Shown: positions 347 to 926, counted from the first letter of the stretch. The stretch is DNA of 4,742 nt from a virus (IMGVR_UViG_2740892258_000009), one strand, 5' to 3'. Notes: generated by a model from the sequence alone, not told the origin. Numbers and translations are program-made.

Positions 347-372
347 AATCTGGATATCCCCAACAACAATAA
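347..372. repeat. Left arm of the 26-bp inverted repeat bracketing the zinc-ribbon gene
   Basis: AATCTGGATATCCCCAACAACAATAA (347-372) against the reverse complement of 901-926, AATCTGGATATCCACAACAGTAGTAA. The outer 13 nt are identical and 22/26 match overall. The inner edge abuts the putative SD (371-375). Confidence 0.8.
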
Positions 373-383
373 GAGTATTCAAT

Positions 384-899
384 GTGATCGCTGAATTAAC
401 GGCAGCAATGACGGCTATTCGTGAAACAGCCCAGATTGCAAAACTAATGAACGAGGCAAAAACTCAAGCTGAAGTAAATGCGGCTATTGGTGAGCTGAAC
501 TCAAAGCTTGCGTCTATTCAGCGCGAATGCGTGTCTCTCGTTGAACTGGTGGGCTCTTATCAAGAAATAAATGCTTCTCTCAAAGCTAAAATTGCAGAAT
601 TCGAAAACTTTGAGGCTCAGACGGAAGGCTATATCCTTAACCAACTTGAGTCGGGTACTTTTGTATACTCGAAGGAGGTAATCGTGAACGGTGGCAGCAT
701 AACCATGCATCTTTGCCCAAAATGTTTTGGACAAAAGATAGTATCGATACTTCAACCATTCCCGGTTAGCGAAGATGAGCTTTTTCATAAAAGCAGGTGC
801 CTCCACTGTGAAAATAAGTTTCTGATGAATAAAAATCCGGATTACGTATCGCCTCCATCCATTGAGGAGTTGTCCAGAAAACTTAACGGCAATCTGTAG
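384..899 (+). CDS. Hypothetical small protein with an N-terminal coiled coil and a C-terminal four-cysteine zinc ribbon (171 aa from GTG 384; 163 aa from ATG 408)
   Basis: This is the 3' two-thirds of track ORF 120..899. From MTAIRETAQIAKLMNEAKTQAEVNAAIGELNSKLASIQRE.. the sequence is heptad-like and Ala/Glu/Lys/Gln-rich. It is followed by CPKC (nt 714-725), 24 residues, then CLHC (nt 798-809). GTG 384 has AAGAG 8 nt upstream; ATG 408 has no SD. An intrinsic terminator follows 40 nt after the stop. The part of the track ORF upstream of 384 is Arg/Trp/His-rich and looks non-coding. Confidence 0.75.
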   Translation: MIAELTAAMTAIRETAQIAKLMNEAKTQAEVNAAIGELNSKLASIQRECVSLVELVGSYQEINASLKAKIAEFENFEAQTEGYILNQLESGTFVYSKEVIVNGGSITMHLCPKCFGQKIVSILQPFPVSEDELFHKSRCLHCENKFLMNKNPDYVSPPSIEELSRKLNGNL

Positions 900-900
900 A

Positions 901-926
901 TTACTACTGTTGTGGATATCCAGATT
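901..926. repeat. Right arm of the 26-bp inverted repeat bracketing the zinc-ribbon gene
   Basis: TTACTACTGTTGTGGATATCCAGATT begins 2 nt after the TAG stop (897-899). It is the reverse complement of 347-372 at 22/26 positions. GTT flanks both outer ends (344-346 and 927-929). Confidence 0.8.

Follow-up and report, generated by a model that had tools for sequence, protein, structure and literature searches.

The subject of this report is a short protein-coding gene that lies backwards in the early leftward operon of an Escherichia coli prophage, together with the pair of inverted repeats that frames it. The gene was found in a 4,742-nucleotide (nt) stretch of viral DNA (IMGVR_UViG_2740892258_000009), the whole of which we refer to as "the window." The window matches E. 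coli APEC O18 at 100% and comprises the immunity region of an SfV/e14/ST64B-like lambdoid prophage integrated beside tRNA-Arg. The prophage is N-less: the annotation of its early-left operon lists no N gene, and the search for a remote N homologue was not exhaustive. A slot between pL and the early-left genes holds one backwards (+ strand) moron gene, which we refer to as the cargo. Here, we describe the anatomy of this slot, its conservation, and the readings that may account for it. We propose, at what we judge to be an even chance, that a conserved long-range RNA helix and an rrn-type boxA on the early leftward transcript frame an exchangeable slot for backwards defense genes. No prior description of such an arrangement was found in the searchable literature, our coverage of which is incomplete.

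The bracketed gene and its surroundings

An earlier note on this DNA described a gene encoding 171 amino acids (aa), packed almost without slack between inverted repeats that share an outer 13-mer. A repeat search of the window bears this out: the two arms (coordinates of all features are given in Table 1) are 26 nt each, are complementary at 22/26 positions (85%), are spaced 528 nt apart, and carry the same outer 13-mer, AATCTGGATATCC. The Shine-Dalgarno sequence, AAGAG (371-375), overlaps the inner end of the left arm, and the stop codon, TAG (897-899), is followed by 1 nt and then by the right arm. An ATG at 382 is out of frame with the 171-aa open reading frame (ORF). The sequence TGGATATCCA within the arms is a palindrome, meaning that part of the arm repeat is direct as well as inverted. 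The trinucleotide GTT that the earlier note pointed out just beyond both arms is present (344-346 and 927-929), but the bases of the left flank vary between copies and the GTT on the right belongs to boxA. Of dinucleotide-shuffled versions of the window, 12% contain a perfect 13-nt inverted repeat within 1.5 kb, which makes the 13-mer weak evidence on its own; a 22/26 match is expected ~0.002 times per window by a binomial estimate. The repeat by itself is therefore only moderately improbable, and the decisive evidence comes from comparison across genomes rather than from statistics.

On the − strand, i.e., in the sense of the leftward transcript, the right arm begins without a gap after a boxA, GCUCUUUAACAAU, that is identical to the boxA of E. 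coli rrnB. Indeed, the reverse complement of positions 924-936, GCTCTTTAACAAT, is identical at 13/13 positions to the boxA region of the K-12 rrnB leader, and the boxA consensus GCUCUUUAACAA is matched on this transcribed strand. Next to boxA lies a hairpin with a T run. Read on the − strand, the hairpin (957-938) ends 1 nt before boxA, at a place like that of boxB. The − strand form is the weaker one: the hairpin is more stable on the + strand in 27/29 variants, with means of −11.7 versus −7.1 kcal/mol, a 4.6 kcal/mol difference that is due to a conserved T·G pair. From these folding energies, we predict that the hairpin is a one-way terminator between convergent transcripts, one that stops the cargo messenger RNA (mRNA) and acts weakly on the leftward transcript. 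The K-12 rrnB leader consists of a hairpin, AC, UGCUCUUUAACAAU, and then UUAUCAGACAAUCUGUGUGGGCAC, whose partner, GUGCUCACACAGAUUGUCUGAUA, is located just 3′ of the 16S sequence. Hence, the rrnB order of hairpin, TGCTCTTTAACAAT, and 5′ strand of the 16S stem is the order also seen on the − strand of the window.

The position of the slot relative to the early promoter is set by the oL operator set, which is the probable site of pL; judged from the position of the operators, pL would fire leftward ~100 nt upstream of boxA. The gene order around oL agrees with the HK620 annotation, and a conserved 60-nt leader separates the oL set from the bracketed cassette. By virtue of the gene order of the immunity region, the cassette falls inside the untranslated leader of the leftward early transcript, in the opposite orientation. 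As the earlier note expected, the gene points against the leftward early operon and is followed by a terminator of its own (938-957, then a T run).

The earlier note did not recognize the protein, which structure and profile searches now place as a homologue of ring interacting pore 1 (Rip1). A profile built from homologues of the cargo protein matches PDB 9oox chain L, Rip1, over residues 5-152 (E 5.8e-20), and the single 171-aa sequence does so with E 2.7e-7. The protein consists of long N-terminal helices and a C-terminal beta domain that contains C111, C114, C139, and C142. These residues are the two cysteine pairs that the earlier note had picked out, and all four zinc-ribbon cysteines are invariant across 37 Enterobacterales homologues. 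An AlphaFold model (mean predicted local distance difference test score, 89.9) has PDB 9oox as its sole significant Foldseek match, with a probability of 1.00, a template modeling score of 0.54-0.70, and 28% identity. Identity to the HK446 homologue is 27% by tblastn; other homologues include HK620 hkaP and genes of Pseudomonas Mu-like phages. Rip1 is a single-protein anti-phage system encoded by prophages; the characterized Rip1 proteins protect by assembling a pore, triggered by the ring, around the portal or small-terminase rings of phages, and in Pseudomonas the gene is located between terminase genes (PMC13434031). The window protein resembles Rip1 of phage HK446 (PDB 9oox) in sequence profile, in fold, and in being prophage-encoded. 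It differs in its genomic position, which is unlike that of Pseudomonas Rip1, and, judged from its single-sequence E value and its 27% identity to HK446, it represents a distant branch of the family. Because of this homology in sequence and fold, the cargo can be assigned as a defense gene rather than as a gene of unknown function, its anti-phage activity being putative.

The slot across prophages and genera

In other E. coli prophages, the same flanks surround different + strand genes at the slot. Two scans of viral contigs, followed by clustering, yielded ~27 DNA cassette types, each with an inverted repeat of its own, always at the same two positions. In 24/25 cassette types, the major ORF reads along the + strand; it often starts 35-40 nt past the outer end of the left arm; at the other end, the right arm is followed directly by GTTAAAGAGC and the hairpin terminator. 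The cargo belongs to at least seven unrelated protein families (PHROGs 1244, 5286, 6315, 7681, 3983, and others), all of which are function-unknown in PHROGs, and neither Pfam nor PADLOC returned a significant family for any cargo protein. Six families other than that of the window were found in the bracketed slot (L005, L006, L007, L010, L012, and other loci), including the "ECs1072 family" and PHROGs 6315, 7681, and 3983. Since a Rip1 homologue holds the slot here, these six families are candidate anti-phage genes.

To a large extent, the frame is conserved along with the gene. A protein-based search of species-representative genomes, which used neither boxA nor the arms, returned 14 full-length homologues from other genera (Citrobacter, Kosakonia, Scandinavium, Symbiopectobacterium, Izhakiella, Enterobacter, and others). 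Both arms, with boxA adjoining the right arm, are present at 12 of these 14 loci, and the terminator hairpin comes next in 11 of the 12 (L248 is without it). Alignment of 11 of these loci to the window shows 61-70% identity in the coding DNA, against almost no change in the 13-nt arm cores or the boxA 10-mer. boxA is kept in 11/11 genus-level relatives, save for G/T at one position. A gene conserved without its repeats, which the earlier note had named as fatal to its proposal, is thus not what the cross-genus loci contain. The comparison argues that the arms are functional rather than incidental.

The arms also covary. Among 36 distinct arm pairs, 89.0% of cells are paired when read as − strand RNA and 85.2% when read as + strand RNA, with 9/16 and 10/16 outer pairs, respectively, changed on both sides. 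The observed values were matched by 0/500 shuffles on either strand. Compensatory cores include GGATGACT/AGTCATCC (L007, L159, and L174), GTAACCCTC/GAGGGTTAC (L010), GGACATCC/GGATGTCC (L087), and AATCTT/AAGATT (L012), and GGATACCC is present in both the left and the right arm of L167. L006 and L010 encode homologous proteins, yet their arms are very different from one another while being internally complementary. Pairing between cognate arms is favored over that between non-cognate arms by 3-4 kcal/mol.

The cassette is found in more than one genomic background. A second prophage backbone, that of a Rac-like prophage in O157 (EDL933), also carries it, and the stretch that this copy shares, window positions 276-936, takes in 70 nt outside the left arm and the boxA outside the right arm. 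The cultured phages PhiR29 and PhiR49 contain the cassette at 99% identity, which makes the model directly testable. By contrast, the arms, boxA, and hairpin are all absent from SfV, L008, and L009, in which the cargo is on the − strand, and from ST64B, which has no gene at this position; the homology of these four to the window breaks at ~313 (258 for ST64B) and at ~968. They are likewise absent, as far as arms and boxA are concerned, from the N-dependent phages HK446 and HK620, whose Rip1 homologues lie antisense in pL operons. The bracket therefore accompanies backwards cargo in N-less leaders, a pattern consistent with a part in taking early transcription across the cargo.

Two further observations concern the left side of the slot. 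In the Rac prophage of K-12 (L239:8480-9420), sieB is in the equivalent backwards position, downstream of a leader that is built like window positions 276-380 and has two ATACCC(C/T)TACAG repeats; Rac sieB overlaps ydaF at its 3′ end and, for that reason, has neither the right arm nor boxA. In the window itself, a degenerate second copy of the left arm is present at 314-338, 33 nt upstream of the first, with TCCCCAACAACAA at 324-336 the same as at 357-369. In the − strand fold, this copy pairs with TTGTTGCTAAC, just past the terminator (957-967), and the resulting outer helix (314-338/957-967) encloses the hairpin, boxA, and the main stem. The degenerate copy could have been left behind by an earlier cassette, or it could serve as an alternative pairing partner.

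The proposed long-range helix and competing readings

The earlier note listed a long-range RNA duplex as one of three readings, and it has emerged as the best supported of them, given the covariation of the arms, the − strand folds, and the rrn-type boxA that the right arm abuts. The arm-arm helix is found in both the minimum-energy and the centroid fold of the 791-nt − strand RNA (1040 to 250), with z = −3.1. Three of the four arm mismatches are G·U on this strand, giving 25/26 pairs. In the minimum-energy folds of the cassette types, the inserts of which are unrelated and 350-830 nt in length, the helix is present in 25/25 types on the − strand and 21/25 on the + strand. Four points favor the − strand RNA as the functional one: (i) boxA is at zero spacing from the right arm in all backbones; (ii) the layout parallels that of rrn; (iii) four cassette types lose the helix on the + strand but none on the − strand; (iv) positions 344-349, GTTAAT here and TATAAT in L006, L138, L170, and L214, may double as the −10 element of a cargo promoter, in which case the cargo mRNA would start inside the arm and lose most of the 13-nt core.

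If the helix does act in the leftward transcript, events could unfold as follows. The leader of the pL transcript would present a weak hairpin, 1 nt, boxA, and immediately the 5′ strand of the helix (the reverse complement of 901-926); the next ~530 nt would be antisense cargo RNA, followed by the 3′ strand of the helix (the reverse complement of 347-372). This is the order of the E. coli rrn leader (boxB, boxA, and boxC), in which the 16S processing stem comes directly after boxA. In the published view of rrn, the Nus/SuhB complex on boxA remains with the polymerase, resists Rho, and delivers the 5′ strand to its partner, raising RNase III processing (PMC8632103; bioRxiv 10.64898/2026.03.17.712431). 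We infer by analogy that the − strand RNA of the slot behaves similarly. Once bound to boxA, Nus factors would remain attached to RNA polymerase, making it resistant to Rho and to pausing over the long untranslated antisense stretch, and the Nus-bound complex would hand the 5′ strand to the emerging partner. Once formed, the duplex (25/26 pairs with G·U counted) would leave the antisense cargo RNA as a loop excluded from the early transcript; at 26 bp, it is long enough in principle for RNase III, for which it would be a plausible substrate. The cargo could then be swapped without disturbing early-left expression.

Several points weigh against this account. Both patterns used to scan viral contigs included boxA, and only the 14 loci from the protein search are unbiased in that respect. 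pL was placed from the operator position rather than by promoter detection; a promoter scan over 1-1300 found neither pL nor a cargo promoter. Many single arm mismatches are transversions, so pairing is not strictly kept, and the perfect core is only 9-13 bp in some cassette types, which is short for RNase III. Most arms hold AATCTGGATATCC without drift, suggesting that something specific to this sequence, e.g., a promoter or protein binding, also constrains them. Lastly, the helix as such does not point to one strand: the + strand mRNA can form it too, and covariation does not separate the strands. Neither do the apparent strand biases. G·U cells number 34 on the − strand versus 8 on the + strand, a real difference that we rejected as a strand test because it is confounded by the conserved, C-rich left arm: the excess is mainly at the left-arm C run, where T makes up 23/54 non-C partners, approximately the expectation from transition bias. 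Most of the energy gap between the − and + strands is also seen in non-cognate pairs and is thus largely compositional. The C-over-G skew of the antisense RNA, considered as an indicator of Rho sites, was uninformative.

The foremost competitor is a duplex that acts in the cargo mRNA, with pairing of the 5′ and 3′ untranslated regions stabilizing the mRNA or tuning its translation in the lysogen, and with boxA as an unrelated neighbor. The helix is predicted in the + strand fold of the window as well as in those 21 cassette types, covariation is equally strong on that strand, and the arms are suitably positioned, the left one close before the start codon and the right one at or just past the stop codon. 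This reading is unlikely, though it deserves real weight: it leaves the constant zero spacing between boxA and the right arm unexplained, even in the O157 backbone, and it has to contend both with the four types that lose the helix on the + strand alone and with an mRNA that, were NNTAAT at 344-349 the −10 element, would begin within the arm.

We regard as improbable the proposal that the arms have no RNA role and are instead boundary sequences for DNA-level cassette exchange by recombination, or are bound by protein. It would account for the ends of homology between prophages with different cargo, which are in or near the arms (355-373 on the left and 908-923 on the right), for an arm sequence that is largely fixed rather than drifting, and for the palindrome TGGATATCCA, which is of the kind bound by dimeric proteins. 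Recombination boundaries need not be inverted copies of one another, however, and cassette-specific compensatory changes in both arms (L007, L010, L087, L012, and L167) are not expected of them; no candidate recombinase gene is present in the nearby annotation.

The earlier note also considered a mobile or once-mobile cassette. That part of the proposal which concerns mobility stands, since the slot swaps its cargo and the cassette occurs in a second backbone in O157, but a non-autonomous transposable element with terminal inverted repeats is very unlikely. Inverted repeats exactly at the ends of a single-gene unit, and the same gene in two prophage backbones, are what such an element would leave. 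Yet there is no target-site duplication (the left flank reads GTT, GCT, TAT, GGT, or AGT, and the right flank is fixed as boxA), no transposase is present, the O157 copy reaches past both arms, and all copies are in the same kind of slot in one orientation. A search of IMG/VR for the empty site that the earlier note suggested looking for, with the left flank within 4-34 nt of boxA, gave 0 matches. An integron cassette was tried as an alternative and rejected: the core sites GTTRRRY/RYYYAAC are not matched by GTTAATC and GTTAAAG, and no integrase adjoins the slot. The likeness to integron attC cassettes lies in promoterless-looking, single-gene cassettes that are swapped at one site and have imperfect, cassette-specific inverted repeats; the differences are that the repeats of the window flank the gene instead of forming a compact attC, and that there is neither an integrase nor a cassette array. 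A switch in which inversion of the segment would turn the gene around with respect to boxA and pL, the remaining proposal of the earlier note, has the inverted repeats as its sole point in favor and can be set aside as highly implausible: a chimeric inverted-junction query at ≥80% coverage was found in 0/5,426 complete E. coli genomes, the orientation of the ORF is nearly uniform across cassette types, and no invertase or recombinase gene is annotated nearby.

Related designs, neighboring elements, and significance

The proposed helix-and-boxA frame can be compared with three known arrangements. In the E. coli rrn leader, as here, a promoter-proximal hairpin is followed after 1-3 nt by boxA and then by the 5′ strand of a ~26-bp helix, whose partner lies past an untranslated enclosed RNA. 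There are differences: the RNA enclosed in the window is the antisense of a 0.35-0.83 kb protein-coding cassette rather than rRNA, the hairpin is really a terminator of the opposite strand and is weak on the − strand, and the arms are unrelated to boxC beyond AAUCUG. The nutL site and RNase III-sensitive N leader of lambda share with the window a boxA ~100 nt downstream of pL (cf. the HK620 annotation); the window differs in having a hairpin before boxA rather than after it, and a duplex that is long-range (528 nt) rather than a local hairpin. A lambda-type, N-dependent nut site was rejected on the same order of hairpin and boxA and on the lack of an annotated N gene in the early-left operon. 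The third arrangement is the sieB/hkaP moron slot, which likewise holds a single lysogen-expressed, backwards gene with its own terminator in the early-left operon; HK620 hkaP is a homologue annotated as a putative superinfection exclusion protein, and Rac sieB holds the equivalent place in K-12. The window slot differs from those of K-12 Rac, HK446, and HK620 in being framed by a conserved, co-varying repeat and boxA.

A comparable combination was seen in the Proteus T5-like phages Stubb and PM135 (L181:4800-5800; L226, terminal repeat). These phages have several boxA sites on one strand, in which GCTCTTTAAC/A is followed by AATCT, and at least one of the sites is ~25 nt downstream of a strong promoter-like TTGACA-17-ATAATA. 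One boxA is followed by a 5′ arm with a perfect 18-nt partner ~650 nt further on, just before the next boxA, and the enclosed ORFs are in the sense orientation. Hence, the pairing of boxA with a long-range stem may be more general in phages.

Beyond the bracket, the leftward transcript runs into an STnc100-like structured RNA and then the early-left genes yfdP, yfdQ, yfdR, etc. In RefSeq, the STnc100-like stretch is entered as a hypothetical protein with a frameshift (ymfH in e14). The RNA was considered as an antiterminator like HK022 put and rejected, since HK022 has no STnc100 match from downstream of IS903 to the start of gene O. On the other side of oL, the ParA-family gene occupies the position of rexAB in lambda and is a second likely lysogen-expressed accessory gene; an IS3 lies beside its relative in prophage L012. 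Two repeats are found in the rightward part of the window. A perfect 56-bp tandem duplication at 3963-4074 is inside a ymfL-like gene, and since 56 is not a multiple of 3, the reading frame is shifted relative to the unduplicated allele. A 15-nt unit, TCAAAATCTGACGCA, occurs in 3-4 head-to-tail copies at 4672-4742 in the replication-initiator gene, resembling origin iterons as in lambda O.

Table 1. Features of the window, ordered by position (a blank strand cell indicates that none was assigned)
Feature	Coordinates	Strand	Remarks
STnc100-like structured RNA	49-272	−	40.3 bits (gathering score 47), E 2e-6; ends in a terminator-like hairpin
Conserved leader	276-346		Moves with the cassette into the O157 prophage; 73-93% identical across genera
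Left arm	347-372	+	Proposed 3′ strand of the helix in leftward (− strand) RNA
Cargo gene	384-899	+	GTG start, 171 aa; PHROG phrog_1244; Rip1 family
Right arm	901-926	+	Proposed 5′ strand of the helix in − strand RNA; directly 3′ of boxA
boxA, GCTCTTTAACAA	925-936	−	Overlaps the outer 2 nt of the right arm
Hairpin and T run (hairpin stem 938-957)	938-963	+	Predicted intrinsic terminator of the cargo gene
oL operator set	1044-1089		Inverted copy of oR (3270-3315) next to cI/cro
ParA-family ATPase gene	1284-2360	−	Own terminator; between cI and oL
cI-like repressor gene	2531-3292	−	
cro	3342-3605	+	

A broader idea is that N-less lambdoid prophages, and perhaps T5-like phages, copied the design of the rRNA leader as a plug-and-play socket for defense genes, in which the antisense RNA is looped out and cut by RNase III, Nus factors carry polymerase across, and the stem serves as a standard interface for swapping. 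We put this forward tentatively, as a possibility that we think somewhat less probable than not. If the proposed role of the helix and boxA is correct, it would show how a prophage can carry an opposite-direction, lysogen-expressed defense gene in its main early operon and still be transcribed effectively in the lytic cycle. A further consequence would be to extend the combination of an rrn-type boxA and a delivered long-range stem to phage mRNA leaders. The slot is, moreover, a recognizable hot spot (left arm, cargo, right arm, boxA, and terminator) that can be found by a simple DNA pattern, and its uncharacterized cargo families are candidate anti-phage genes.

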